Positions 11,883 to 46,476 are shown, numbered from the stretch's first letter. The stretch is 57,159 nt of DNA from Kiritimatiellia bacterium (GCA_045627605.1 JAZQOA010000018.1:1-57159), one strand, 5' to 3'. Program-made: numbers and translations. The notes: generated from the letters alone by a model not told the origin.

Positions 11883-11934
11883 GGGAGGTTGAAGGTTGGA
11901 GGGGGGAGGGGGGAGGTTGGAGGTGGGAGGTGGG
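11883..11934 (+). repeat. G-rich heptamer tandem repeat (consensus KGGAGGK), about 7 units
   Basis: gggaggt tgaaggt tggaggg gggaggg gggaggt tggaggt gggaggt ggg, in the 75-bp intergenic gap. Confidence 0.8.
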
Positions 11935-18524: not shown

Positions 18525-19436
18525 CTATTTCTTCTTCTCGATGACGGACGACGCCGCCTTGATGAAGCCCGCGACGTTGGCGAGGTCCGACGGGATGATC
18601 ATCGTGTTGCCCGTCTTGGCGAGCTTGCCGAACTCAGAGATGTAGCCCTCGGCGAGGCGGAGGTTGACGGCGTCGGAGCCGCCCGGGGTCTGGAGCGCCT
18701 CGGCGATCGTGCGGAGTCCCTGGGCCGTGGCCTCGGCGACGAGCTGGATTTCACGGGCCTTGCCCTCGGCCTCGTTGATGCGGCGGGCCTTCTCGCCTTC
18801 GGACATCGCGATGGCCTGCTGCTTCTCGCCTTCGGCGCGGTTGATCTTCGCCTGGCGGTCGCCCTCCGACTCGGCGATCATGGCGCGCTTTTCGCGCTCG
18901 GCCCTCATCTGCTTCTCCATCGCGTCGCGAATCGTCTGCGGCGGCGTGATGTTCTTGATCTCGTAGCGCGTGACCTTCACGCCCCAGGGGTCGGAGGCCT
19001 TGTCGACGGCCGCGACGATTTCGGCGTTGATGTGCTCGCGCTCCTCGAAGCTGCGGTCGAGATCGAGCTTGCCCATCTCGGAGCGCATCGTGGTCTGCGC
19101 CAGCTGCACCGAGGCGAAGAGGTAGTTGGAGATGCCATACGACGCCTTGGCGGGGTCCATCACCTTGAGGTAGAGGATGCCGTCGACATCGACCGCGATG
19201 TTGTCGCGCGTGATGCACGACTGCGGCGGGACGTCAATCGCCTGCTCCTTGAGCGTGTGCTTGTAGGCGACGCGGTCGATGAAGGGCACGAGGAGGTGGA
19301 AGCCCGCCTCAAGCGTCCCCGAATACCGGCCCAGCCGCTCGATGATGTAGGCGCTCCTCTGCGGGACGACGCGCGCGCATTTGAAAATCGTGACGACCAC
19401 CACGACCATGATTACAATTGCCAGTAACTCTCCCAT
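18525..19436 (-). CDS. SPFH/stomatin-like (paraslipin/QmcA-type) membrane protein
   Basis: N-terminal TM helix, IIERLG, ITRDN, LAQTTMRS, WGVKVTRYEI and QMRAEREKRA. Confidence 0.93.
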   Translation of the reverse strand: MGELLAIVIMVVVVVTIFKCARVVPQRSAYIIERLGRYSGTLEAGFHLLVPFIDRVAYKHTLKEQAIDVPPQSCITRDNIAVDVDGILYLKVMDPAKASYGISNYLFASVQLAQTTMRSEMGKLDLDRSFEEREHINAEIVAAVDKASDPWGVKVTRYEIKNITPPQTIRDAMEKQMRAEREKRAMIAESEGDRQAKINRAEGEKQQAIAMSEGEKARRINEAEGKAREIQLVAEATAQGLRTIAEALQTPGGSDAVNLRLAEGYISEFGKLAKTGNTMIIPSDLANVAGFIKAASSVIEKKK

Positions 19437-19470
19437 TTCCGACTTCCTTTCCTTTTTTGTTTGCCCTGTG

Positions 19471-19914
19471 TTAGCGGACGGGCTTCACGCCAAGCGTGAG
19501 ACCGTTGCGCGAAACGACTTCGACCATCGCCGAGGCGGCGACGGGCTCGGCGCATTCGGCACTCCAGTTGGTACCGCCGAGCTCAACCTTGCCGGGGCGC
19601 CCCGGTTCCAAAGGTTCGACAACCTTGACGATCTTGCCAATGCACTCGTCGTCGTAGTCTACGCCGCTGGCAGCCGCGTGCTTGTTGCCGGAGCCAACGG
19701 CATGCCGCCTGAAAGCCGCAAGCGCCCCCAGGGACAGGACGACGAAAAGCAACGTCTGCCAAACAGAGGGAATGCCGCCGAAAATCCACACGGTCAATCC
19801 CGTGAGCACGGCCCCGGCGCCAAAGAAGATAATCACAAACCCCGGCACGACGAATTCAAGTGCCATCATTATGATTCCCGAAATAAGCCAAAGCATGTAA
19901 GCGGACATGACCAT
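19471..19914 (-). CDS. NfeD-family membrane protein (SPFH partner)
   Basis: WLISG...ALE..PG, three hydrophobic segments and a C-terminal OB-like GKVELGGTNWSA. RBS GGAGG precedes the ATG at 19914. Confidence 0.88.
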   Translation of the reverse strand: MVMSAYMLWLISGIIMMALEFVVPGFVIIFFGAGAVLTGLTVWIFGGIPSVWQTLLFVVLSLGALAAFRRHAVGSGNKHAAASGVDYDDECIGKIVKVVEPLEPGRPGKVELGGTNWSAECAEPVAASAMVEVVSRNGLTLGVKPVR

Positions 19915-19945
19915 GACAACCTCCTTTTCATGTTCCACCATTATA

Positions 19946-20413
19946 CTAAAAAATATCTTTTTTTTCTCGGTTGCAGCCCGCACGGGCATCCCAGCTCCCC
20001 GCGTGAGATATTTTTCCTCTCGCAGAGACATCCGCGTAACAATTGTTGACAATACGCTTGACGCCTTCTTTCAACGTATTCATTCCAAAGTTAATCAGCA
20101 GCCCCACCTGCAAGCCGGAAAGCACAAGATAAGTACGCAATTGCTTGTAAAACACAGGCGACATCTGAGCCACTGACTTCAGTTCAACAACAACGACCTC
20201 ATCCACCAACAGGTCCATGCGAAAAGCATCGGGGATCATGCGTCCTTCATATTGAATCGACAATGCCTTTTGACACTCGACATGATGACCACGCTTCTCC
20301 AACTCAATGGCCAAGATCTTTTCATAAACGCTTTCCAGAAGTCCAGGTCCAAATTGCTGATGGATCTTAATCGCAGCTTCAAGGACATCGCCGGTAATTG
20401 CGTTAATTTCCAT
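19946..20413 (-). CDS. GxxExxY protein (PD-(D/E)XK-like fold)
   Basis: IHQQFGPGLLESVYE, FRMDLLVDEVVVVELKS, QLRTYL and GLLINF. Visibly more AT-rich than its neighbours. The C-terminus reads on through the downstream repeat. Confidence 0.92.
   Translation of the reverse strand: MEINAITGDVLEAAIKIHQQFGPGLLESVYEKILAIELEKRGHHVECQKALSIQYEGRMIPDAFRMDLLVDEVVVVELKSVAQMSPVFYKQLRTYLVLSGLQVGLLINFGMNTLKEGVKRIVNNCYADVSARGKISHAGSWDARAGCNREKKDIF
19999..20036. repeat. Downstream copy of the GxxExxY-flanking repeat core
   Basis: CCGCGTGAGATATTTTTCCTCTCGCAGAG at 19999-20027 is identical to 20621-20649. Confidence 0.92.
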
Positions 20414-20419
20414 CCCGAA

Positions 20420-20649
20420 CTCCCTCCGCGCTCTCCGCGCTCTCCGCGTGAGATATTTTTCCTCTCGCAGAGACCGCAGAGACCGCAGAGACTCCCCCGC
20501 ATTTACCCAAGCCTCCCTCCGCGTTCTCCGCGTGAGACATATTTCCTCTCGCAGAGACCACAGAGGCCGCAGAGACATCCCCGCATTTACCCAAGCCTCC
20601 CTCCGCGCTCTCCGCGTTCTCCGCGTGAGATATTTTTCCTCTCGCAGAG
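20420..20649. repeat. Tandem array of structured repeat units upstream of GxxExxY (93 bp, 84 bp, partial 53 bp)
   Basis: Units start at 20420, 20513 and 20597. Each is a run of 9-mers with core CTCCGCG, then a TGAGA..TTTCCTCT centre, then CGCAGAGAC-type 9-mers, then the linker CCCCGCATTTACCCAAGC. Confidence 0.95.
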
Positions 20650-20683
20650 CTTGAATGCCAAGCCATTTTTGTAATTCTCCCTC

Positions 20684-21883
20684 TCATCTCCGGGCCAGCA
20701 CCACCACGGCGGGGAAGCCGCGCACCCCGTACCGCGCAAGCAGAGCTTCGGCGGCGGGTTCGCCGGGGTCCTCGACCCTGATGCGCAAAAAGGCGCATCG
20801 GGAAAGCAGGTCGGCGACTTCCGGATTGGAAAACGTGTTTTTCTCCATCGTCTCGCAACTGCCGCACCACGAGGCGAAGAAGTCGATGACGACGGGTTTT
20901 CCCGTCGCCTCGGCTTCGGCCAGCGCCGCGTCGAACTGCGTGTACTCATACACGCCGTGGCCTTCGGCATACGTGACGTAGGCGCTGGCCGCGATCTTGA
21001 AGTGCCGAACGGCCAGCAACAACACGACGGCGGCAAAGCCCCATTCCACATACCGCATCCACTTGCCGGGCCGCGGCAACACCGAAAGCCCCGCGCCGAC
21101 AAAAGGCCAGGGAAGCGCCATGCCGCATCCCAGGAGAAGCGGCAGGAACAACGCGGCGGAGTGCCCGGCGGCATAGGAATCGGCGGCATAGACAATCGCG
21201 GCGATGACCGCCGGGGCGACGCAGGCCCCCGCCAACAGCGCCGAGGTGACGCCGACGAGGAAGAGTCCCGCCAGCGAAAGCGACGAGGACGCCCGGCGCG
21301 AAAAGCGCGAGAAGTCAATCGGGAAAAGGCCGAAGAGCGCCAGCGAAAGCACGGCGAAGACCACGCCCACCGCGATGTTGAAGGCGGGCAAGGACTGGAT
21401 CCGGCCAAAGACAGCGCCAGTTTTGACCGCCGCGAAACCGAGCGTCCCGTAGGTCAACGCCAGGGCCGCGCCGTAAACGCAGCCGCGGAGAAGGCCCTCG
21501 CGCCGCGATGCGGCGCGGCGCCCCATGCCCAGCACCGCCAGCTGCACGGGGATCATCGGCAAGACGCAAGGCGAGAGATTGAGGGCGAGCCCGGCGAGGA
21601 AGACGAGGGCGAGCCGCGCAAAGGGACTCCAGGGAGAGGAATCCTCCGGAGACGAGGTCCCCGCCCCTCCTTCACCAAAGGCTGCGGCGCGGAGAAAGGC
21701 GGCGAAATCCGCCGCATTGCGGTAGCCGTGGGAAATTCCGGCGACATCGGCGCGCGAAACCCGCACCAGCACATTGGTGCCGGGCGGCGGGAACTCGCAG
21801 AAATCAGGGGTGCAGATCTGCGCCGGCGCGCAAAGGCAGGCCAGCGACAAGACGGCAACCGCGATTTTCCGAAGTTCCTTCAT
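20684..21883 (-). CDS. DsbD/CcdA-like thiol:disulfide interchange protein with C-terminal thioredoxin domain
   Basis: GLALNLSPCVLPMIP, ACVAP, LPRPGKWM and IDFFASWCGSC. Start at the ATGA overlap (21883). Confidence 0.88.
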   Translation of the reverse strand: MKELRKIAVAVLSLACLCAPAQICTPDFCEFPPPGTNVLVRVSRADVAGISHGYRNAADFAAFLRAAAFGEGGAGTSSPEDSSPWSPFARLALVFLAGLALNLSPCVLPMIPVQLAVLGMGRRAASRREGLLRGCVYGAALALTYGTLGFAAVKTGAVFGRIQSLPAFNIAVGVVFAVLSLALFGLFPIDFSRFSRRASSSLSLAGLFLVGVTSALLAGACVAPAVIAAIVYAADSYAAGHSAALFLPLLLGCGMALPWPFVGAGLSVLPRPGKWMRYVEWGFAAVVLLLAVRHFKIAASAYVTYAEGHGVYEYTQFDAALAEAEATGKPVVIDFFASWCGSCETMEKNTFSNPEVADLLSRCAFLRIRVEDPGEPAAEALLARYGVRGFPAVVVLARR

Positions 21884-22887
21884 TTTGCGAACAAGCCCTG
21901 CCCGGCCACAAGCAACCCAAGGTAGGCCACGTAGACAAGCAACAGGAAGGCCCCCTCGACGCGGTTGATCCGCGCCTTGTAGCCGCGGCAAAACGGGATG
22001 CAAAAGAGCAACAGGACAACCGTGACCGCGATCATGACCGGATAGTCGCGGACAAGCACCATGTGGATCGAAGTCGCGTCATCGCCAAGCGTCATCGGCT
22101 TGACAACGCCCGCCAGGCCGACGACCGCCAGCGTATTGAAGAAGTTGGAGCCGACGATGTTGCCGAGCGCCAAGTCGTGTTCGCGCTTGCGGATGGCGGC
22201 AAGCGAAGAGGCAAGCTCGGGGAGCGAAGTCCCGACCGCGACGATGGTCAGCCCCACGATCAGGTCGGGCACGCCCAGCGCGGCGGCGATTTTGACGGCG
22301 CACTTGACGAGCAACTGGGAACTTCCAATGACCAGGGCGAGCCCCGCGAGAACCTTGGCGCTGGCGCGTCCGAGCGAATCGCAGGACGACGCTTCGGGCG
22401 CGGACGCCGCGCTGTCCGGGCACGTGCGCTCACGGCGTTTCTCCACAATGATATTGTTGGCGAGGAAGGCGAAAAAAAGCACCAGCATGACAATCGCGTC
22501 GACCCGAGAAATCACGCCGTTGGCGAGAAGTCCGCCGCAAACCAACGTGATGCCGAGCAAGACGGGAAGCTCACGGTTCAGCACGCCCGAAGCAACAGTA
22601 ATTGGGCAAATCGCCGCCGTGAGGCCGAGAATGAGGCCGATGTTGGCGATGTTGGAGCCGTAGGCGTTGCCCAGCGAAATGCAGGGATTTCCCTCGAGCG
22701 CGGAAAGGAGCGAAACCATCAGTTCGGGAAGCGACGTCCCGAAACCAATGACAATCATCCCCACGAGAAGCGGTGAAAGACCGCAACGGCGGGCAAGCGA
22801 AGCGGAGCCATCGACGAAGACATCGGCACTCCAAGCCAGCACCGCGAGGCCGACGGCCAATCCAAGCAAAGCCAACCAGATAGACAT
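21880..22887 (-). CDS. Calcium/sodium antiporter (CaCA, YrbG-like)
   Basis: Two alpha-repeats, GTSLPE...GNxxGSN. Confidence 0.93.
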   Translation of the reverse strand: MSIWLALLGLAVGLAVLAWSADVFVDGSASLARRCGLSPLLVGMIVIGFGTSLPELMVSLLSALEGNPCISLGNAYGSNIANIGLILGLTAAICPITVASGVLNRELPVLLGITLVCGGLLANGVISRVDAIVMLVLFFAFLANNIIVEKRRERTCPDSAASAPEASSCDSLGRASAKVLAGLALVIGSSQLLVKCAVKIAAALGVPDLIVGLTIVAVGTSLPELASSLAAIRKREHDLALGNIVGSNFFNTLAVVGLAGVVKPMTLGDDATSIHMVLVRDYPVMIAVTVVLLLFCIPFCRGYKARINRVEGAFLLLVYVAYLGLLVAGQGLFAK

Positions 22888-34455: not shown

Positions 34456-34584
34456 CAGGCGAATTGGCCACCGGTCGGGAGTGCCAGAGGCACCGTGGGT
34501 GGTTGCGAAATCAGCGGGGAAAGAGTCTCCCGCAGATGACGCAGATTTCATGGCGAATTGAGAATTGAGCGATTACGAGGGAAG

Positions 34585-34657
34585 GACAAGAGACAAGAGA
34601 CATGAGACATGAACCGAGACAAAGAGACCTCTCGTGTCTCGCGTCTCATATCTCGCG
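34585..34657. repeat. Heptamer repeats (GAGACAW) followed by inverted copies (YRTCTCR), forming an imperfect hairpin
   Basis: gagacaa gagacat gagacat..gagacaa gagac, then tgtctcg cgtctca tatctcg. Confidence 0.8.
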
Positions 34658-34660
34658 ACC

Positions 34661-34908: not shown

Positions 34909-37470
34909 ATGGACAAGTCTGGATTTTCATCAGCCGCGTTGGCCGAATGCGAAGCGAAGAGCGTTTTTGCCAAGCGCGTCGAGGCGCTTCCCGACAAGGC
35001 CTGGGAATGCAGCGAATGGATTTCGCTCGCCGCAGCGCCCGTCACAAGCGAACATGACTGCTGGAACACGCAACGCGCCGCCGACGGCACCGCCTATTTC
35101 CTGAGACGGTTCGCCAACCCCTCCGCCATCGTCAAGGCCGTCTGGATGACAAGCGGCCTCGGCACCTACGAAATCTATGTCAACGGCAGGCGCATCGGCA
35201 ACGACGTCCTCAAGCCCGGCTTCACGCATGTCCTCAAGACCCGCCGCTGCTTCACCTACGACATCACGGATGTCATCGCCAGGGAACAGGGCGCGGCCAA
35301 CAGTTTCGCCGCCGAGGTCTCCGCCGGCTGGTGGCGCGACAAGATCGTCAACTTCACGGGCCGGAAGAGCGCCTTCCGCGGCGTCATCGAATTCACCTTT
35401 GCGGATGGCTCCAGGCAACTTCTTGGCACGAAGGCGGACGAATGGCTCGGTCTCGGCTGCGGCCCCGTGACCCACGCCGCCATCTTCGACGGCGAGGAAT
35501 ACGACGCCCGCATCGCCAGTCCCGCCGGGAATCCCGGGGCCTACGCCAACGCCGCCCCCGCGGGTTGCGTCCGCAACGACGAATTCAAGGGCGAAATTCT
35601 CCCGACCGCCGGAGCCGAAATCTGCCGCCGCCACGACCTCGCGATGAAGCCTGCCGAAGCCTACTGCTGGCAGGGCGTCGAGGGCGCCGACCCCGAAAAG
35701 GAAATCTTCGGCAAAGTCGTCAGGACGCGCACCTTCGCCCAGGGCGAGCGCCCCATTCTCAAGGCGGGCGAAACGCTCGTCGTCGATTTTGGCCAGAATT
35801 GCGCCGGCGTGCCGTGTTTCCGCTTCAAGGCCGCGCCTTGCACGGTTGTCACGACGCGTCCCGGGGAAATGCTCAACGACATGAACGGCGAACGCAGCCG
35901 CGGCAACGACGGCCCCGCCGGTTCGCTTTACCGCGAAAACCTCCGCATCCCCGAAACGGGCATGCGCGCAACCTACACCTTCGCGGACGCCCCCGGCTGG
36001 TCGTCGTACATGCCGCGCTTCACCTTCTTCGGCTACCGCTACTTCTCCATTACGGCGACTTCCGACGTCGAGTTCGACGAAATCCTCAGCGTCCCCGTGA
36101 CATCGATCGCCAAGGAACTCGAACTCGGCCGCATCGAGACAGGCGTCGCGGACGTGAACCGCCTCATCTCCAACGTGTACTGGGGGCAGCTCTCCAACTA
36201 CCTCTCCGTGACGACAGACTGCCCGCAGCGCAACGAGCGCCTGGGCTGGACCGCCGACACGCAGGTCTTCACCGAGGCGGGCACCTTCAACGCCGACACC
36301 TCCGCCTTCTTCCACAAGTGGATGCGCGACATGCGCGACAACCAGCACGAAAAAGGCGGCTTCCCCGGCGTCGCCCCCTTCGGGCAGTACGGCAACGAAC
36401 CCATGCGCCTCGGCTGGGCCGACGCGGGGGTCGTCGTGCCGTTCCAAATCTGGAAGCAGTTTGGCGACACCGCGATCATCGACGAGAACTGGGACGCCAT
36501 GGCGAAATACGTCGCGCATGTCAACGAGACAAAATACGACATGGCCGCCGTCGCCGGCGAAAACGGCAACTACCAGTGGGCGGACTGGCTCAGCTACGAG
36601 GATCTCGAAAGCTGCAGCGGCCAGGCCTTCACGACGGTCGACGGCAAATGGCAGCCCAAGCCCGACGCCATCACGTACTGGAACTACCTCGGCGCATGCT
36701 ACTGGATGTGGGACGCCGACATGATGCGGATGATGGCCGAAGCCACGGGCCGCGACGCCTCGCCCTACGCAAAGATGCGCGACGACGCCAGGGCCTACCT
36801 GCGGGACGCCTTCTTCAAGACGGCCGACGGCCTCATCCTCGAGCGTTTCCGCGGCATGCAGACGCCCGCGCTCTTCGCACTGAAGCTCGGTCTCGTCGAG
36901 GGCGAAGCCAAGTCGGCGACGGCCGAGGCGCTCCGCAAGAACATCGCCGACCACGGCGACTGCCTGCAGACGGGCTTCCTCGGCGCATCGATCATCATGG
37001 ACGTGCTGACGGAAAACGGCCTGGCGGACGTCGCCTACACGCTCCTCCTCCAGCACAAGAACCCGAGCTGGCTCTACTCGGTTGACCAAGGCGCGACGAC
37101 AATCTGGGAGCGGTGGAACTCCTACCGCAAGGACTCGGGCTTCGGTCCCGTCGGGATGAACAGCTTCAACCACTACGCCTACGGCTCGGTTCTCGCCTGG
37201 ATCTACAAGAGCGCAGCGGGCATCGCCGCCGACCCCGCCAAGCCCGGCTTCGCCAACATCGTCATGGCGCCAAAGCCCGACAAGCGCCTCGGCTTCGTCA
37301 AGGCCGAATACAAGACCCGCCACGGCCTTGTCAAGAGCGCCTGGCGCTACGAGGGCGGCAAGTGGCTCTGGGACTTCACCATCCCGGCGGGCGCGACGGC
37401 GTCCGTGACGCCCCCCGGCGCGTCAACCGCGACCGCATACGCCGCAGGCGACTACCATGTCGAACTGTAG
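34909..37470 (+). CDS. Alpha-L-rhamnosidase (GH78)
   Basis: VDFGQN, FTFFGYRY, TDCPQRNERLGWTAD, WADW, GATTIWERWN and SFNHYAYG. Confidence 0.95.
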   Translation: MDKSGFSSAALAECEAKSVFAKRVEALPDKAWECSEWISLAAAPVTSEHDCWNTQRAADGTAYFLRRFANPSAIVKAVWMTSGLGTYEIYVNGRRIGNDVLKPGFTHVLKTRRCFTYDITDVIAREQGAANSFAAEVSAGWWRDKIVNFTGRKSAFRGVIEFTFADGSRQLLGTKADEWLGLGCGPVTHAAIFDGEEYDARIASPAGNPGAYANAAPAGCVRNDEFKGEILPTAGAEICRRHDLAMKPAEAYCWQGVEGADPEKEIFGKVVRTRTFAQGERPILKAGETLVVDFGQNCAGVPCFRFKAAPCTVVTTRPGEMLNDMNGERSRGNDGPAGSLYRENLRIPETGMRATYTFADAPGWSSYMPRFTFFGYRYFSITATSDVEFDEILSVPVTSIAKELELGRIETGVADVNRLISNVYWGQLSNYLSVTTDCPQRNERLGWTADTQVFTEAGTFNADTSAFFHKWMRDMRDNQHEKGGFPGVAPFGQYGNEPMRLGWADAGVVVPFQIWKQFGDTAIIDENWDAMAKYVAHVNETKYDMAAVAGENGNYQWADWLSYEDLESCSGQAFTTVDGKWQPKPDAITYWNYLGACYWMWDADMMRMMAEATGRDASPYAKMRDDARAYLRDAFFKTADGLILERFRGMQTPALFALKLGLVEGEAKSATAEALRKNIADHGDCLQTGFLGASIIMDVLTENGLADVAYTLLLQHKNPSWLYSVDQGATTIWERWNSYRKDSGFGPVGMNSFNHYAYGSVLAWIYKSAAGIAADPAKPGFANIVMAPKPDKRLGFVKAEYKTRHGLVKSAWRYEGGKWLWDFTIPAGATASVTPPGASTATAYAAGDYHVEL

Positions 37471-40197: not shown

Positions 40198-41991
40198 ATG
40201 AACAGACTGGCATACGCAGCCGCATTTGCGGCGCTGTGCGTCGCCCTGCCGGCAACCGCCCAGTTTACCAAGAGGCCCTGGTCGCTGACGAACCCGCCGA
40301 TTGGCGAGCGCGTGAAAGACGACTTCAAGGATGTCGCGCATCCCAAGGACTTCGTCCACTACGACGTGCCGCCGATGAGTTCGCTCCAGCGGCTTCCCGA
40401 CGTCTACCCCGAGGACGGCGTCCCCGGCGGCACCATCTGCATCGTCGCCGCCAAGGAGGAGTACGAACCCGGCTCCTTCCTGATCTATGGCCTCGCCGAC
40501 CTCGGCAAGACCCAGCTTTCGCTTACCGAGTTCAAGACCGAGGACGGCAAAAAGTTCCCCGCCGAAGACCTCGACCTCAAATTCGTCAAAGTCTGGTACC
40601 AGAGCCGCAACGCCTGGTACAGCTACTTCGGCGACACCGGCTTCAAGCTCGTCCCCGAGCTCCTGCTCAACGACGAGGACCTCATCCGCGTCGACGAGGC
40701 GAAGGAAGCCAACTACGCGCGCCTCAAAGCCGCGGACGGCAAGACCTCCGAGTTCTGGATCAACCCGCCCTTCGAGATGAACCGCGTCTTCTGGGACTGC
40801 CACCGCGGCGGCGACATCTTCCAGCCGATGCGCCCCGAATTCAGCGACGCCGCGACGCTCCAGCCCGTCACCCTCCCCAAGGGCCAGTTCAAAAACTTCT
40901 TTCTCACGGCGCACGTCCGCAAGACAACGCCCGCGGGACTCTACAAGGGCGCCGTCAAAGTCGGCGGCCACGGCGAAATCCCGGTCGCGATCCGCGTGCT
41001 CGACTTCGAGCTTCCGAAGCCCAAGGCCTACTTCGACGACGACCTCGACTTCTTCGTCTGCTCCTACACCTACAACTGCTTCGCGATGATCATGGAGCAG
41101 AACGGCGGCGACCTTGACCTCGCGAAAAAGCAGTTCAAGGCCACGATGGAGAACCTCGCCGCGCACAACCAGGACATGAACTGGCTCCGCTGGGGACTCT
41201 GCGCCGAGAGCTTCGAGTGCTGGAAGCTCATGAAAGAGGCGGGAATCCGCACCGACGTCGGCGTCGGCGGAATCGGCGCGGCCCAAGACACGGCGGGCGC
41301 CCGGCGCAACGCCGAGGCCGCCGACCGCTTCTACGGCCACCACAACATCTACATCGGCTACGGCGACGAGCCCTCGCCGCGTTGGGTCGCGGCCCAGCGC
41401 CACGTCTTCAAGGCCAACCAGGAGGCCGGCTTCAAGTTCATCCTCGCCGGCAAGGACCAGGTCTTCCGCAAGGCCGGCTACATCTACGACTGGCACAACG
41501 TCGCCAAGTCGCCCGAGGATTCCTCGACGACCGACCTCTGGAACCAGTTCGGCTCCAGCCCGCACGTCGCCTGGTACGCCGGCATGCACGTCGGCGTTGA
41601 AAACCCCGAGTACAACCGCCGCCAGAACGGCATGGCGCCCTACCTCGCCGGCTACTCCGCCCTCTGCAACTACGCCCACCACTACGGCTCCTACAACGAC
41701 GACTCCACCGGCTATCGCCCGATGGTCTTCTGCTATGGCGTTTACGGCGGCGTAATCGACACCCTCCAGTGGGAGGGCTTCCGCGAAGGCGTCGACGACA
41801 TCCGCTACGCGACCGCCATGGTCAAGCTTGCGCGCGAAGCCGCCAAATCGAATACCGTCGAAGTCCGCTACGCCGGCAACAAGGCGCTCCAGTACCTCGC
41901 CTCGTTCAACCGCGACAGCGACAATCTCGACGCCTGCCGCGGCGAAATGATCCGCCACATCCTCACCCTGAAATCCCTTCTTGGAAAGTAG
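40198..41991 (+). CDS. Secreted putative glycoside hydrolase (DUF4091/GH123-like)
   Basis: Signal peptide, EYEP, VPELLL.D, AGLYKG...VLDFELP, YGDEP and QWEGFREGVDDIRY. Confidence 0.7.
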   Translation: MNRLAYAAAFAALCVALPATAQFTKRPWSLTNPPIGERVKDDFKDVAHPKDFVHYDVPPMSSLQRLPDVYPEDGVPGGTICIVAAKEEYEPGSFLIYGLADLGKTQLSLTEFKTEDGKKFPAEDLDLKFVKVWYQSRNAWYSYFGDTGFKLVPELLLNDEDLIRVDEAKEANYARLKAADGKTSEFWINPPFEMNRVFWDCHRGGDIFQPMRPEFSDAATLQPVTLPKGQFKNFFLTAHVRKTTPAGLYKGAVKVGGHGEIPVAIRVLDFELPKPKAYFDDDLDFFVCSYTYNCFAMIMEQNGGDLDLAKKQFKATMENLAAHNQDMNWLRWGLCAESFECWKLMKEAGIRTDVGVGGIGAAQDTAGARRNAEAADRFYGHHNIYIGYGDEPSPRWVAAQRHVFKANQEAGFKFILAGKDQVFRKAGYIYDWHNVAKSPEDSSTTDLWNQFGSSPHVAWYAGMHVGVENPEYNRRQNGMAPYLAGYSALCNYAHHYGSYNDDSTGYRPMVFCYGVYGGVIDTLQWEGFREGVDDIRYATAMVKLAREAAKSNTVEVRYAGNKALQYLASFNRDSDNLDACRGEMIRHILTLKSLLGK

Positions 41992-41999
41992 GTGCACCC

Positions 42000-44405
42000 A
42001 TGACGACCCGTTTCCCGATTATCGGCGCCGCTCTCGCCTCCGCCACTCTTCTTCTCGCCGGCTGCGCCTCGACGGCGCCCGAAGCCACGGCCCCCGCCGC
42101 CACGGCGGCCGCCCAAGCCACGGCCCAGCCCCCCGCCCTCAAGGACGAGGCCCGCGCCGTCATCAACAACCTCCGCAACTACAGCGTCCACTCCTTCGCC
42201 GACGACGTCCTCAAGAAAGTCCCGCCCGCCCTCGAGTTTCTCGCCGCGAACGCGGGCGACGTCTCAAACAAGGCCGTGCTTGCCGAGGTGAAGTCCAACG
42301 TCCTCAAGACCTCGGCGCGCGCCGGCGACTTCGACATCGCCAAGTCCGTCGCCAACGAACTTCTTGAAACCGAGGGCATCTACGGCGGGTGGAGGCTCGA
42401 CGCGGCCGACTACCTCGCAAAGGGCCTCCTGCGCGGCGACGACAACAACGGGGCCGACGCCCTCTACGCCCGCTTCGCCAACCTCGAGCCCCAGTTCCTG
42501 CCGATGGGCGAAATCGTCCGCGCCAACGCGCTCCGCGCTTCGCTCCGCGTCCGCCAGGGCGACATGGCCGGTGCCCTCGCCATCATCGCCGAGGCCCGCA
42601 AGCGCACCCCCGGCAACGAGGGCTGGAACGAAGGCTTCCACGCGCAGCTCGACGACGAGGCCGTGAAGATCTACAAGGAGTTCACCCGCTACCAGGAGGC
42701 CTACGACTACTGCATCTCAAAGGGACGCAAAGCCAAGGCCCTCTCGCTGCTCTCCGGCGGCTACATCGACGACGCGCCGCGCGGCCTGAAGCTCGCCCGG
42801 GAAATCCTTGCGGACGCCTCTTCCACCACCGGCGAGAAACTCGAGGCCTGGGACTGGATCTTCTCCCGCGACCAGGCCGCCGCCGACAAGTCCTTCGCGG
42901 ACGTGCTCGGCACCTCCACCCGCGAAACCAACAACGTCATCGGCAAGCTCCGGGGCAAATTGGCGCAAGCCAACATCGGCAACGTCTACGACGGCGGCCA
43001 TCCCGCCTACTACTCCAACTGGCCTGAGACGATCCGCGCCTGGGAGGCCTACGAGAAGATTCTCCGCCTCAACGGCGCCAAGCCAGACTTCGCCCAGGCA
43101 CAGTACGGCATGATTGCCTACGCGGAGTCGGGCGACATGAAGAAGGCCGTCGCCACGGCGCAGTTCGGCCTCGAAAACGACAAGCTGAAGCCCGAGGAGC
43201 GCTACGAACTCGCCCTTGCGGCACGCACCCTGGGCCTCGCCGGGACACCGGCCGCCATCGCAAAGGCCATTCTCGCGGCCGAAAACGAACTCGGCGCGGA
43301 ACTCCCGCCCGCAGAGCGAATCAAGCGCTTCGACCGCGTGGGCGGCGCGGCAGTCGCCTCCAAAAACGAAAACCTCGCCCGCGGTTTCGCGGCCAGCCGC
43401 TCATCCCTCAAGCCCGACCTCGGGAAGAAGCGCTATGTCGCCAAATTCTCCCCGCGGAACATCGCCGGCGCCGGCGACTGGGCCAACCTGCCCTTCAAGC
43501 CCGAGGAGCAGGACTTCGACCGCAAGTACGGCGGGGGCGACCTCTCGTTCATGACGACGGATGTCGCCACCGGCGACCGCGGCAACGCCGTCAAGGGCGG
43601 CCACTCCGAGCATCCCACGACCTTGCAGGTCGTCACCGACGAGTGGGGCATCCACATCCTCCTCTCCTTCTACGACAAGCGCGCGCGGGAGTTCGAGGCG
43701 GGAGCACTCGACGCCGGCAGCTACGAGTGCTATATCGCGCCCGGCGAAAACCAGCCCTACTCCTGCTTCCTCTGCCGTCTGAAGAAAGACGCCTCGGCCG
43801 GGCTCTACCACACGTCGTACAACAGCCCGGGGCACCGGCGCATTCCCGAAGCCGACCAGTCGAAGGTGAAGAGCGAAACGCTCTTCACAGACGACCGCGT
43901 GCTCAACTACATCGCCTTCTCGTGGGACAATTTCGCGACGCTCATCCCCACGGAAGACTCGATGTGGGACCTTGAGTGCATCTTCTGGGGGCCCGTGTCC
44001 TCGGCGTGGAACGGCACCGAGTCGATCCATGGCCGCAGCACCTGGGGCACCCTCGCCTTCTCCCTCTCCGCCGCCGACCGCGCCAAAATCTACCGCGCCC
44101 AGATCTTCAAGGCCGCCAACGCCTACAAGGCCGAGAAATCGCCGAACCCGCCCCTGCCCGGCAGCGTCCAGGGGGGCGTCTTCGACTTCTGGCAGGACGG
44201 CGAGCTCGGCGACCCCGAGTTCTACGAGAAGGTCCTGAAGCCCCTCGAGGAGCAGCTCGACAAAGGTCTTGAGCGCGTCAAGGTCGGGATGTCCGACGAC
44301 GACGTCCGCGACCTCACCGAAAACTACCTCCAGCAGTGGCGCGACATCCGCTTCACCGTCGGCAAGCTCCGCGCCGACTACCTGAAGCGCAAGCTCGCCG
44401 AGTAG
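42000..44405 (+). CDS. Large lipoprotein with a helical-repeat N-region and an aromatic beta-rich (possibly carbohydrate-binding) C-region
   Basis: Lipobox LLLAGC, an Ala/Thr/Pro linker and strongly host-like C-ending codon bias. No recognisable catalytic motif. Confidence 0.7.
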   Translation: MTTRFPIIGAALASATLLLAGCASTAPEATAPAATAAAQATAQPPALKDEARAVINNLRNYSVHSFADDVLKKVPPALEFLAANAGDVSNKAVLAEVKSNVLKTSARAGDFDIAKSVANELLETEGIYGGWRLDAADYLAKGLLRGDDNNGADALYARFANLEPQFLPMGEIVRANALRASLRVRQGDMAGALAIIAEARKRTPGNEGWNEGFHAQLDDEAVKIYKEFTRYQEAYDYCISKGRKAKALSLLSGGYIDDAPRGLKLAREILADASSTTGEKLEAWDWIFSRDQAAADKSFADVLGTSTRETNNVIGKLRGKLAQANIGNVYDGGHPAYYSNWPETIRAWEAYEKILRLNGAKPDFAQAQYGMIAYAESGDMKKAVATAQFGLENDKLKPEERYELALAARTLGLAGTPAAIAKAILAAENELGAELPPAERIKRFDRVGGAAVASKNENLARGFAASRSSLKPDLGKKRYVAKFSPRNIAGAGDWANLPFKPEEQDFDRKYGGGDLSFMTTDVATGDRGNAVKGGHSEHPTTLQVVTDEWGIHILLSFYDKRAREFEAGALDAGSYECYIAPGENQPYSCFLCRLKKDASAGLYHTSYNSPGHRRIPEADQSKVKSETLFTDDRVLNYIAFSWDNFATLIPTEDSMWDLECIFWGPVSSAWNGTESIHGRSTWGTLAFSLSAADRAKIYRAQIFKAANAYKAEKSPNPPLPGSVQGGVFDFWQDGELGDPEFYEKVLKPLEEQLDKGLERVKVGMSDDDVRDLTENYLQQWRDIRFTVGKLRADYLKRKLAE

Positions 44406-44481: not shown

Positions 44482-46476
44482 ATGGCTCTTTGCGACAGGG
44501 ACGCGGCCGGCATGCGGCTCGCGCCGCTTTTTGGCGACCACGCCGTCATCCAACGCGGGAAAACAACTCCCGTCTGGGGGTGCAACGCGCAGCCGCGCGC
44601 AAAACTCGCCTGCCGCATCGGCGGCGCGACGAGCTGGACCGTCGCCAATCCCGACGGCACCTTCCTCTTCTACCTGCCGCCGATGGAGGCGGGCGGCCCC
44701 TACGACCTCACCGTCGCCAACGAGACGCGAACGGGCAGTGCGCCGCTCGCCGAGGTCTTCACCGCGTCGCACGACGTGTACGTGGGTGAAGTCTGGCTCT
44801 GCTCGGGCCAGAGCAACATGGCGCTGGAAATGCGGCGGGCAAAGCCGGGATTCGGCGACGAGCCCGTGGAAAAACTCCGCGTCTTCGCCGTCCCCGCCGG
44901 ATGCCGCGCCGGACGCCCCGCGGCCGACGTGGACGCCACCTGGGATGTCGCCACCCCGGAATCCGCCCAGGGCAAATCCGCCGTCGCGGTCTTTTTCGGA
45001 CGCGAACTCCAGCGCGAACTGGGCTGCGCCGTCGGCGTCGTCGTCGCCGCCGTGGGCGGCACCATCGCGATGAACTGGACAAGTCGCGACGGTCTCCTCG
45101 CCACGCCGGAAGGGCGCCGCATCGTCGAGAAATACGAACGGGGACTTTCAAATCCCGCAACCTGGGCCGACCCGCCATCCGCGAATACCGGCGCGGACGT
45201 GGCGGACGACGGCATCTCCGCCGAGGCGGCGGGCTGGGCGCTCCCCGAAGCCGACACGACGGACTGGACCGTCGCGGACGCCCCCTGCGACTTCGCCGCG
45301 GCCTTCGGCCACGCCTTCAACGGCGCAGCCTGGTTCCGGAAGGACATCGACATTCCCGCCGAATGGGAAGGCCATGCCCTCACCCTCGCCCTCCCCGCCA
45401 TCGACAAGCACGACATCGCCTTCTTCAACGGCGTCGAAGTCGGCCGCACCGGCAAGGGGTTCGAGTGGGAGGCGTGGGACAAGCCCCGCACCTATGCCGT
45501 CCCCGCCGGCCTTGTCAAGGCCGGACGCGCCACGATTGCCATCCGCATCTGGAGCTACAAGCTCGGCGCCGGCTTCTCAACCGGAGTCGACCATTTCTCC
45601 ATCGGGCCGGCCGACGGCACCGACGCAACCGCCCTTGAAGGCGATTGGCGGACAAAAGTCGAGCGCGACATCGGCAACCGGACGGAATCCCTGCCGCCCG
45701 TCCGCCATCCCGGCGGACGTTCCATCGGCGTCCCCCACGGACTTTACGACGGCATGATCGCGCCGCTCGTCCCCTTCGCCCTCCGCGGGGCGGTCTGGTA
45801 CCAGGGCGAATCCGAAGCCGACGCCATGGACGACGCGCGGCGGCACAAGGCCCTTCTCGCGGGGATGATCAACGACTGGCGGCGGAAATGGGGCGATGAA
45901 AAGATGCCTTTCTGCATCGTCCAGATCGCCAACTTCGGCCCGCTCCGCACCTACGAGAAGTCCTCGCCGTGGTCGGTGGTCCGCTTTGCGCAGCTTCAGC
46001 TCTCGCTCGAAATGGAAGGCGTCGGCATGGTCTCGGCCATTGACGTCGGCGAGGCCACGAACCTCCATCCCGCCGACAAGCTCACAGTCGGCAAGCGCCT
46101 CGCCAACTGGGCGATGGCCAGCGTCTACGGCGACACCGGCAGGACGGCCACGGGACCGCGCTTCGTCTCGGCCGTGGCGGACGGCTGCAAGATCACTGTC
46201 CGCTTTGCCGATGCCGCGCACGGGCTCGCCACGCGCGACGGCGCCCCCGTCGGCGCGTTGCGCCTCGCGGGCGAAGACGGCGTCTTCCACGCGGCAGAGG
46301 GCGAAATCCTTGGCGACAGCCTTGTCGTCTCCTCGTCCGAGGTCCCTTCGCCCAGGGCCGTGCAATATGCCTGGGCCAAGAACCCCGCGGCCGCCAACCT
46401 CGTCAACGCGGAAGGCTTCCCGGCGTCACCATTCAGCTGGGCGAAATCCCAAACGCAACCCGGTCAAGGAGCATGA
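44482..46476 (+). CDS. Sialate O-acetylesterase family protein
   Basis: FGDHAVIQR, VGEVWLCSGQSNM, WYQGES and LHPADK. Confidence 0.92.
   Translation: MALCDRDAAGMRLAPLFGDHAVIQRGKTTPVWGCNAQPRAKLACRIGGATSWTVANPDGTFLFYLPPMEAGGPYDLTVANETRTGSAPLAEVFTASHDVYVGEVWLCSGQSNMALEMRRAKPGFGDEPVEKLRVFAVPAGCRAGRPAADVDATWDVATPESAQGKSAVAVFFGRELQRELGCAVGVVVAAVGGTIAMNWTSRDGLLATPEGRRIVEKYERGLSNPATWADPPSANTGADVADDGISAEAAGWALPEADTTDWTVADAPCDFAAAFGHAFNGAAWFRKDIDIPAEWEGHALTLALPAIDKHDIAFFNGVEVGRTGKGFEWEAWDKPRTYAVPAGLVKAGRATIAIRIWSYKLGAGFSTGVDHFSIGPADGTDATALEGDWRTKVERDIGNRTESLPPVRHPGGRSIGVPHGLYDGMIAPLVPFALRGAVWYQGESEADAMDDARRHKALLAGMINDWRRKWGDEKMPFCIVQIANFGPLRTYEKSSPWSVVRFAQLQLSLEMEGVGMVSAIDVGEATNLHPADKLTVGKRLANWAMASVYGDTGRTATGPRFVSAVADGCKITVRFADAAHGLATRDGAPVGALRLAGEDGVFHAAEGEILGDSLVVSSSEVPSPRAVQYAWAKNPAAANLVNAEGFPASPFSWAKSQTQPGQGA

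Follow-up and report, generated by a model that had tools for sequence, protein, structure and literature searches.

A GxxExxY gene in a tandem array of arm-bounded cassettes within the dsbD-nfeD spacer of a Kiritimatiellia bacterium, and its likeness to the intervening sequences of 23S rRNA

Intervening sequences (IVSs) are located in the 23S ribosomal RNA (rRNA) gene, in helix 25 or helix 45, and are removed from the rRNA; to our knowledge, their origin and mobility have been a standing question since about 1990. Two further systems invite comparison: the short tandemly repeated repetitive (STRR) heptamers of cyanobacteria, which are tandem heptamers before start codons, and the attC sites of integron cassettes, the core sites of which are RYYYAAC and GTTRRRY. 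The locus described here occupies positions 19,946 to 20,649 of a 57,159-nucleotide (nt) contig of a Kiritimatiellia bacterium (JAZQOA010000018.1; this whole stretch is referred to as the window). It consists of a gene of the GxxExxY family and an array of hairpin-forming repeats, both placed on the minus strand in the spacer between a dsbD-like gene and nfeD. On balance, and with somewhat better than even confidence, we read the locus as an array of selfish, IVS-type GxxExxY cassettes in an operon spacer; how such cassettes would move, we infer.

According to excerpts of a paper on Coxiella burnetii (PMC4990558), the helix-45 IVS of that species is 428 nt long and contains an S23p open reading frame (ORF) in a stem loop, its excision by RNase III has been shown, and its ORF decays; in addition, tandem GACAGAT heptamers, two or three by strain, stand before the start codon, and the functionality and origin of the IVS are termed unclear. 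As far as those excerpts describe the rRNA IVS, the window element resembles it in having a small ORF inside pairing inverted repeats, tandem 7- to 9-nt units of strain-variable number right before the start codon, an AT-rich composition relative to that of the host, a sporadic distribution, and an ORF that can decay or be deleted. Furthermore, genes of the S23p family (PF05635) are armed in the same genome. Unlike the rRNA IVS, the window element lies in the intergenic spacer of a protein operon, encodes a predicted PD-(D/E)XK protein under purifying selection instead of a four-helix bundle, and is tandemly arrayed with gene-less copies, and RNase III processing has been shown for the Coxiella element only. 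The TAACTGA heptamers of Beggiatoaceae, Cyanobacteria, and Bacteroidetes are, in the excerpted account, direct repeats almost without inverted partners (PMC4679880). They and the STRR heptamers are similar to the present units in being 7-nt tandem units located a few nucleotides upstream of starts across distant phyla, whereas the TAACTGA heptamers are not, in the portion of the account at hand, tied to a cassette or a nuclease gene.

The array at the locus is composed of a left unit, GTCTCTGCG, present seven times, and a right unit of the CGCGGAGAG type, present nine times, around a 17-nt loop, AGAGGAAAAATATCTCA. One left unit and one right unit pair through eight base pairs, one of them U.G, and leave one G/G mismatch. 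A 29-nt core, CTCTGCGAGAGGAAAAATATCTCACGCGG, was found at 19999, 20444, and 20621 with no mismatches and at 20528 with two mismatches, the number of matches expected from 100 shuffles being 0, and the spacings between the copies were 445, 84, and 93 nt. The initial annotation, made from the sequence by a model, had described an insert bounded by two identical 29-bp cores; the cores are indeed exact, but three identical copies and one variant are present rather than two. The tandem units of 93 and 84 bp with differing numbers of 9-mers that it had also described agree with these spacings and with the unit map. The window contains three tandem cassettes, E1 to E3, each with the build 5' arm TCA(CGCGGAGAG)n, body, and 3' arm (GTCTCTGCG)nAGA, and the hairpins, H1 to H4, are the junctions between the arms of neighboring cassettes; they exist at this locus because the cassettes stand in tandem, so that a 3' arm meets the next 5' arm. 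The cassettes, gene, and hairpins are as follows.

20547..20628, minus strand: cassette E1, gene-less; TCA and three right units, 22-nt linker (20577-20598), three left units and AGA
20463..20535, minus strand: cassette E2, gene-less; TCA and two right units, 22-nt linker (20493-20514), three left units and AGA
20018..20451, minus strand: cassette E3, gene-bearing; TCA and three right units (20422-20451), 8 nt, ORF, one left unit (20021-20029) and AGA
19946..20413, minus strand: GxxExxY ORF of 155 codons; PF13366, E value of 1.3e-38; TIGR04256, E value of 7.3e-39
20599..20649, minus strand: hairpin H1; partial left arm CTCTGCG (20643-20649), 17-nt loop (20626-20642), three right units (20599-20625)
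Between the two 22-nt linkers, minus strand: hairpin H2; three left and two right units, from the unit map
Ahead of the gene, minus strand: hairpin H3; three left and three right units, then 8 nt and the ATG of the gene, from the unit map
19995..20029, minus strand: hairpin H4; one left unit, identical 17-nt loop (20004-20020), right unit CGCGGGGAG (19995-20003)

The right units proper of E3 are at 20422-20448, 8 nt ahead of the ATG, and the stop codon of the GxxExxY gene is 46 nt beyond H4. The three cassettes are set apart by the 11-nt sequence GGAAAAATATC, half-arms are present at both outer ends of the array, and the loop preceding E2 (20533-20549) carries two changes.

The two 22-nt linkers may be remnants of gene bodies after internal deletion, a proposal with modest support. 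Linker 1 aligns to the join of the gene ends of E3, that is, to the first bases past the 5' arm followed by the last bases before the 3' arm, and 10 of 2,000 shuffles scored as well. Homologue P0012 has an N-terminal remnant, a C-terminal remnant, and a hairpin ahead of its full gene, and in a genus-mate (G003) the gene is immediately preceded by a gene-less unit of arm, linker, and arm.

Variation at the locus was assessed by comparing contigs from four DNA runs (X1 to X4) over 19000-21600. One X3 contig (record 21; 1,097 nt; depth, 5) spans 19359-20002 and 20610-20994 and has 56 unrelated letters in place of 607 nt, with 4 and 1 other letters in the flanks. This contig is an allele without the gene, and other X3 contigs carry the gene, so that both forms occur in one sample. 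Unit number and gene presence were both shown to vary at the locus. The layout of empty and filled cassettes proposed in the initial annotation is real, in view of this contig and of the resemblance of the linkers to joined gene ends, and the empty or variable alleles that it had called for exist as the gene-less X3 contig and the unit-number variants. The summed word depth over 20392-20478, which sums all organisms, was 20.6 in X3 and 34.4 in X4 versus about 5 alongside, and loose ends at 20423 were diverse; together, these values give only a hint that the arms occur in other contexts in the X3 and X4 samples. In JGI metagenomes, five close loci were found at 71% identity, all representing one locus in related strains.

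The build seen in the window was compared with that of 110 other GxxExxY loci, for which 80 loci were collected from species genomes (at least 10 phyla) and 29 from the same order; the arm alignment penalized both kinds of transition mismatch equally, and its score was set against those of shuffled controls. Enclosing inverted arms exceeded every shuffled control in 64 of 82 loci (at least 10 phyla) and in 23 of 31 same-order loci; the median distance between the arm and the start codon was 8 nt, and that between the end of the domain and the arm was 15.5 nt. The common build was 5'-TCA(CGCGGAGA)n, a few nucleotides, ATG, gene, (TCTCCGCG)nTGA-3', and the unit followed the composition of the host: one form was CGCAGAGA, cyanobacteria had CGCAAAGG, and Bacteroidales had CACAGAAAT. 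A second GxxExxY gene of the same genome, on contig C84, has its own unit, CATAAAGAA/CATAGAGAA, and its upstream arm pairs with its downstream arm. Single-copy cassettes elsewhere have no hairpin, only two arms about 400 nt apart. By these comparisons, the evolutionary unit is the cassette, with arms enclosing a gene, and not the hairpin. The 5' arm was purine rich on the sense strand in 74 of the 83 loci with an unequal count, a Shine-Dalgarno (SD)-like 4-mer was present at -18 to -4 in 59 of 84 loci, and the cassette was co-oriented with its neighbors in 50 of the 59 loci where both flanks agreed, as judged from crude gene calls; arm polarity and co-orientation may reflect common descent rather than selection. 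Genomes of the order carried 0 to 10 copies, with at least one copy in 63 of 81. In draft genomes, many PF13366 hits were located 50 to 400 nt from a contig end (for example, G003:C41:46-396, G021:C6:43-390, and G061:C8:75-416), as expected if arms break assemblies.

Because a clean empty site was not found at the window locus, gain and loss were followed at a recurrent family site, the fabD-fabG spacer, in 30 junctions of one Sphingomonas-type genus. A GxxExxY cassette filled 12 of the 30 junctions, 2 had a decayed cassette, 9 were empty with a spacer of 12 to 26 nt (stop codon, SD sequence, and ATG), and 7 had other inserts. One of the decayed cassettes (locus L189) has been reduced by internal deletion to a 172-nt derivative in which the arms and both ends of the gene are retained, and the ends of the fabD-fabG cassettes read TTC[A/G]CGC ... 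GCG[T/C]GAA. Five unit types, each matched in both arms, were present: CGCGGAGA/TCTCCGCG, CGCGAAGA/TCTTCGCG, CGCAGAGG/CCTCTGCG, CGCTAAGA/TCTTAGCG, and CGCGACGA/TCGTCGCG. The two arms thus clearly covary. Distances among cassette proteins were 0.13 to 0.45 and those among FabD plus FabG were 0.02 to 0.20, and the two sets of distances were uncorrelated (Spearman r, 0.03; 2,157 of 5,000 permutations as high); this incongruence speaks for repeated exchange at a single site instead of simple vertical inheritance. Sequence comparison at these junctions shows cassettes that were evidently gained, lost, and exchanged at fixed intergenic sites. In two genomes (loci L181 and L182), the fabD-fabG spacer is occupied by another palindromic insert, about 100 nt in size (CCGTCATGCTGAACTTGTTTCAGCATCC and its inverted copy), and this spacer may serve small elements in general as a landing place.

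The protein encoded by E3 scored 132.4 bits against PF13366 (cut-off, 22) and 132.7 bits against TIGR04256 (cut-off, 35). GxxExxY (PF13366) is a very large family: 7,910 of 8,000 candidates scored passed an E value of 1e-10, and a relative is encoded in at least 592 of 600 candidate stretches taken from species genomes. In the portion of a 2012 survey of PD-(D/E)XK proteins at hand, the function of GxxExxY is entered as unknown (PMC3424549). An alignment of 14 sequences showed the G-x-x-E-x-x-Y motif and D67, E77, and K79 to be invariant, as were E27 and Y30. The AlphaFold model (predicted local distance difference test score, 92.7) has the fold a-a-b-b-b-a-b-b, and its structure matches were exclusively PD-(D/E)XK-fold DNA nucleases, with no outlier; the best Foldseek match was Cas4 SSO0001 (E value, 1.5e-3), and the best VIA Z was 7.9. 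A search of the PDB by sequence gave 0 matches at E values up to 1, and the prediction of a two-copy complex scored 0.00 against a mark of 0.42. The median ratio of nonsynonymous to synonymous substitution rates (dN/dS) over 57 pairs of cassette proteins was 0.12, a value that shows purifying selection. The PD-(D/E)XK domain corresponds to 20048-20413, after which the ORF continues for 33 codons through H4. Close homologues (80 to 98% identity) share the tail ..SAxSAxSAR-loop-AExAExAE, which comes from the ORF reading into the 3' arm. Similarly, the tail ..PSASPRLRVNQ recurs in Sphingomonadales, Gemmatimonadales, Chthoniobacterales, Geobacter, Chloroflexota, and others (many loci, L048 to L111) because the ORF reads through three TCTCCGCG units; in these loci, the 3' arm is conserved across phyla more than the protein itself.

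In the reading of the locus as an IVS-type array, the cassettes run in the direction of the host operon, and each is made up of a purine-rich 5' arm and an inverted 3' arm with a body between them; one body is the intact GxxExxY PD-(D/E)XK gene, and the other two would be the 22-nt products of internal deletion. The arms would mark the ends where a cassette is gained, lost, or exchanged. They would also pair in the host transcript, giving a stem that RNase III could cut, as shown for the 23S rRNA IVS of Coxiella, and insertion would therefore not block the operon. The 5' arm would supply a ribosome-binding site, and the nuclease would act much as in homing, helping the cassette that encodes it to spread or to be retained.

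Several observations weigh against this reading. The gene-less X3 allele keeps the hairpins, which points to deletion or replacement and not to insertion. A clean empty dsbD-nfeD site, which the initial annotation had suggested seeking in orthologous intervals, was not found in close relatives: in three genus-mates the dsbD-nfeD adjacency is not kept, what comes after dsbD being either different genes or the end of the contig, and among the SPFH-nfeD loci of 30 relatives the adjacency was present in one distant genome only, where the spacer measures about 108 nt. Comparison by eye of the 12 filled and 9 empty fabD-fabG junctions revealed no target duplication. Genome-wide mapping of the core, a check proposed in the initial annotation, placed it at this locus only; it was absent from the rest of the 2.9-Mb, 158-contig assembly (85% complete), and a degenerate form gave 0 matches among 185,579 species genomes. 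The limitation of the core to one locus therefore gives no sign of recent spread in the genome. The compared loci are mutually related, and their counts consequently overstate independence. The pairing and processing of the RNA at this locus are proposed by analogy with Coxiella, its translation is a prediction, and the protein is a predicted nuclease with intact catalytic residues, its activity being read from sequence and fold. Finally, mismatches summed to 111 G.U versus 145 A.C family-wide, so that there was no preference for G.U on the sense strand and therefore no support for selection on an RNA stem.

A wider proposal is that IVS-type cassettes are a widespread, undescribed mobile class in which private arms of tandem 7- to 9-nt units surround a small gene, for either a GxxExxY nuclease or an S23p four-helix bundle, and which homes into fixed operon spacers and rRNA helices, leaves gene-less hairpin progeny, and is made harmless by arm-mediated processing of the transcript, with the 23S IVS as a special case and the GxxExxY nuclease as the mobility enzyme acting on the arms. 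We regard this generalization as tentative and rather more doubtful than the reading of the locus itself. In this genome, all five genes of two "IVS protein" families (two GxxExxY genes and three PF05635 genes) are armed with private units, those of the three PF05635 (23S rRNA IVS protein) genes being tandem units of GGTTAAAT, of AGGTGTAGG, and of a GTATGAAG type. A genome scan identified 89 short-period arrays, of which 26 had an inverted partner within 1.5 kb, and a gene-less GAGACAC family was found at a dozen or more places in the genome. Hairpins of the same build thus do occur independently of GxxExxY genes, with the PF05635 genes and in the gene-less families, an outcome that the initial annotation had named as telling against its proposal. 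No published description of such cassettes beyond the rRNA IVS was found in the literature, supplements being outside the search, and the titles and abstracts listed on GxxExxY/PF13366 and IVS-protein families treated no flanking repeats. If operon-spacer cassettes and rRNA IVSs are one kind, the nuclease would be a testable candidate for the long-sought mobility function. Dispersed hairpins of 7- to 9-nt units, with the assembly breaks and the odd protein tails that accompany them (..SASPRLRVNQ and ..SAxSAxSAR), would also be explained, and annotation pipelines could mask such repeats. The contribution of the window to this picture is threefold: an array in which gene-less cassettes stand in tandem with a gene-bearing one, a naturally occurring allele that lacks the gene, and, for the strand-specific wobble, a negative result.

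An unlikely alternative, although the strongest of those considered, is that the arms act solely at the RNA level (as an RNase III stem, a means of sequestering the ribosome-binding site, or a transcript insulator), that the DNA moves passively via flank homology after gene transfer, and that the nuclease has an addiction or host-directed role. The excerpted Coxiella account, in which RNase III excision is shown and the ORF looks dispensable (PMC4990558), is consistent with it, as are the constant polarity of the arms, the SD-like motifs, the co-orientation with host genes (50 of 59), and the recurrence of cassettes at the same fabD-fabG site instead of new sites, which suits exchange by flank homology. 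The coding strand also folds better at the locus: the fold energy of 20400-20670 was -125.8 kcal/mol (z, -8.1) for the coding strand and -76.0 kcal/mol (z, -4.3) for the other strand, and the strand asymmetry is therefore real there. Counts of mismatches in the arms point the other way. In the enclosing arms of 64 loci, sense-strand mismatches comprised 80 G.U versus 89 A.C; by locus, G.U exceeded A.C in 22, A.C exceeded G.U in 21, and 21 were tied. Among the 23 same-order loci, the enclosing arms had 31 G.U versus 56 A.C, and the local hairpins of same-order loci (L126 to L154) had 18 versus 30. The A.C excess in these same-order loci runs counter to the bias that an RNA stem would favor. A strand-specific wobble as a family trait was rejected by the counts, and the wobble at the window locus is a single unit variant multiplied by unit amplification. 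The strand-specific structure through G.U wobbles described in the initial annotation consequently holds at this locus, by the fold energies, but not across the family. In addition to the missing excess of G.U over A.C, the DNA-nuclease fold, the catalytic residues, and the dN/dS of 0.12 leave the role of the protein unexplained if the arms act on RNA only, and the gene-less arm families at a dozen or more sites need some active spread.

A second alternative, which we consider improbable, is the one put forward in the initial annotation, in which the hairpin is a single-strand recombination site of the attC or REP kind, cassettes lying between hairpins leave as circles and enter at the 29-nt core, and the hairpin is recognized on one strand by the protein. 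The layout of hairpin, linker, hairpin, linker, hairpin, gene, and hairpin with identical cores would suit such a site, as would the wobbles favoring the coding strand at the locus, and the cassettes share with those of integrons their co-orientation, an apparent lack of promoters, imperfect hairpins, and the presence of empty and filled units. Two contig joints could also be read in this way. In an X2 contig, 19998 is joined to 20444 across identical cores; the shorter side of this joint is 58 letters, the shared letters number 31, and the joint may stem from assembly across the repeat. An X1 contig passes from 20021 into sequence resembling 20483-20443, the simplest explanation for which is extra left units in H4; a homologue with 98% identity has a tail of three units. 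The locus differs from integrons in having no IntI found, no R and L core sites, and two enclosing arms instead of one attC after the gene: the best hit to the integron integrase model TIGR02249 scored 78.7 bits against a cut-off of 265 in the assembly (85% complete), and no GTT, hence no GTTRRRY core, could be read in the sequence of H1 to H4. Furthermore, single-copy cassettes elsewhere lack a hairpin, having only the two distant arms, and there is no strand bias family-wide. A hairpin serving each cassette as an attC-like site accordingly finds no backing in the 110 other loci, in which arms enclose the gene, or in a search that yielded no integrase.

Still less probable is the explanation that the arms are REPIN-like and are moved in trans by a Y1 transposase (RAYT or IS200 type), with the GxxExxY gene as cargo. 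Three weak Y1_Tnp matches over the cut-off (34.5 to 37.6 bits; on other contigs, C17, C28, and C32) are present in the genome, gene-less hairpin families occur at many sites, and the locus shares with REP/REPIN-RAYT systems intergenic palindromic repeats, gene-less copies, and a small gene between inverted copies. In contrast to those systems, it has a PD-(D/E)XK gene and not a Y1 HUH gene, its arms are made of private 7- to 9-nt units, and its core is not dispersed, all four copies belonging to one locus. No Y1 gene is at or near the locus, and inspection of GxxExxY loci by eye revealed none either; moreover, a private unit for each IVS-family gene fits a cis link to the gene and not a shared transposase. 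Finally, that this is an ordinary resident gene with slippage-prone repeats, with neither mobility nor a role for the arms, is barely credible: the core is unique to the locus and unit-number variation is what slippage gives, but the GC content drops by about 0.15 over the gene, copy number is patchy (0 to 10 per genome), filled and empty sites occur in one genus with distances incongruent with those of the host, the arms covary, and an unrelated gene family (PF05635) carries the same build.

The gene order on the minus strand is dsbD-like gene, repeat array, GxxExxY gene, nfeD, and SPFH gene, and the GxxExxY gene is co-oriented with both of its neighbors, dsbD and nfeD. The flanking genes are as follows.

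20684..22003, minus strand: DsbD-like upstream host gene; Pfam DsbD_TM, 3.4e-30; Thioredoxin_7, 3.4e-15; the real start is possibly internal to this ORF
19471..19914, minus strand: nfeD, downstream host gene; Pfam NfeD, 1.6e-12
18525..19436, minus strand: SPFH gene after nfeD; Pfam Band_7, 1.7e-36

The fraction of guanine plus cytosine (GC) was 0.45 to 0.50 across the gene and 0.60 to 0.70 in the flanks; this drop and the profile matches for the gene and its flanks agree with the initial description of an AT-rich GxxExxY gene amid housekeeping genes. There was no rRNA match within 19400-21000, the element being in the dsbD-nfeD spacer and not in a 23S rRNA gene, and Rfam gave nothing close to a gathering score at the locus. 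A terminator scan found no terminator-like sites on the coding strand at the hairpins, and the PADLOC anti-phage models gave 0 families at E values up to 0.01.

Elements of related appearance were noted elsewhere in the window and the genome. At 34584-34660 of the window, between ORFs that end at 34551 and start at 34909, there is a gene-less element of four GAGACAx heptads, about 16 nt, and inverted TCTCGTG-type heptads. The GAGACAx family was present on at least 12 contigs, partly as tandem arrays (C72:51050-51570 and C56:39250-39560). A further array, at 11893-11924 of the window, consists of AGGTTGG/AGGGGGG heptads that within 1.5 kb have no inverted partner; heptads of the AGGTTGG/AGGTTGA family were found on many contigs, in arrays of up to 63 nt (C47:11401 and C72:50957). 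On contig C84 (41219-45050), 3.2 kb separates a PF05635 cassette (41219-41530) from the second GxxExxY cassette (44724-45050), and neighboring genes resemble, from their translations alone, sugar or polysaccharide genes. The interval between these two cassettes contains AGGTTGA-type arms, at 42546 and about 43620, and a CATAAAGAA hairpin is part of the roughly 1 kb that they enclose.

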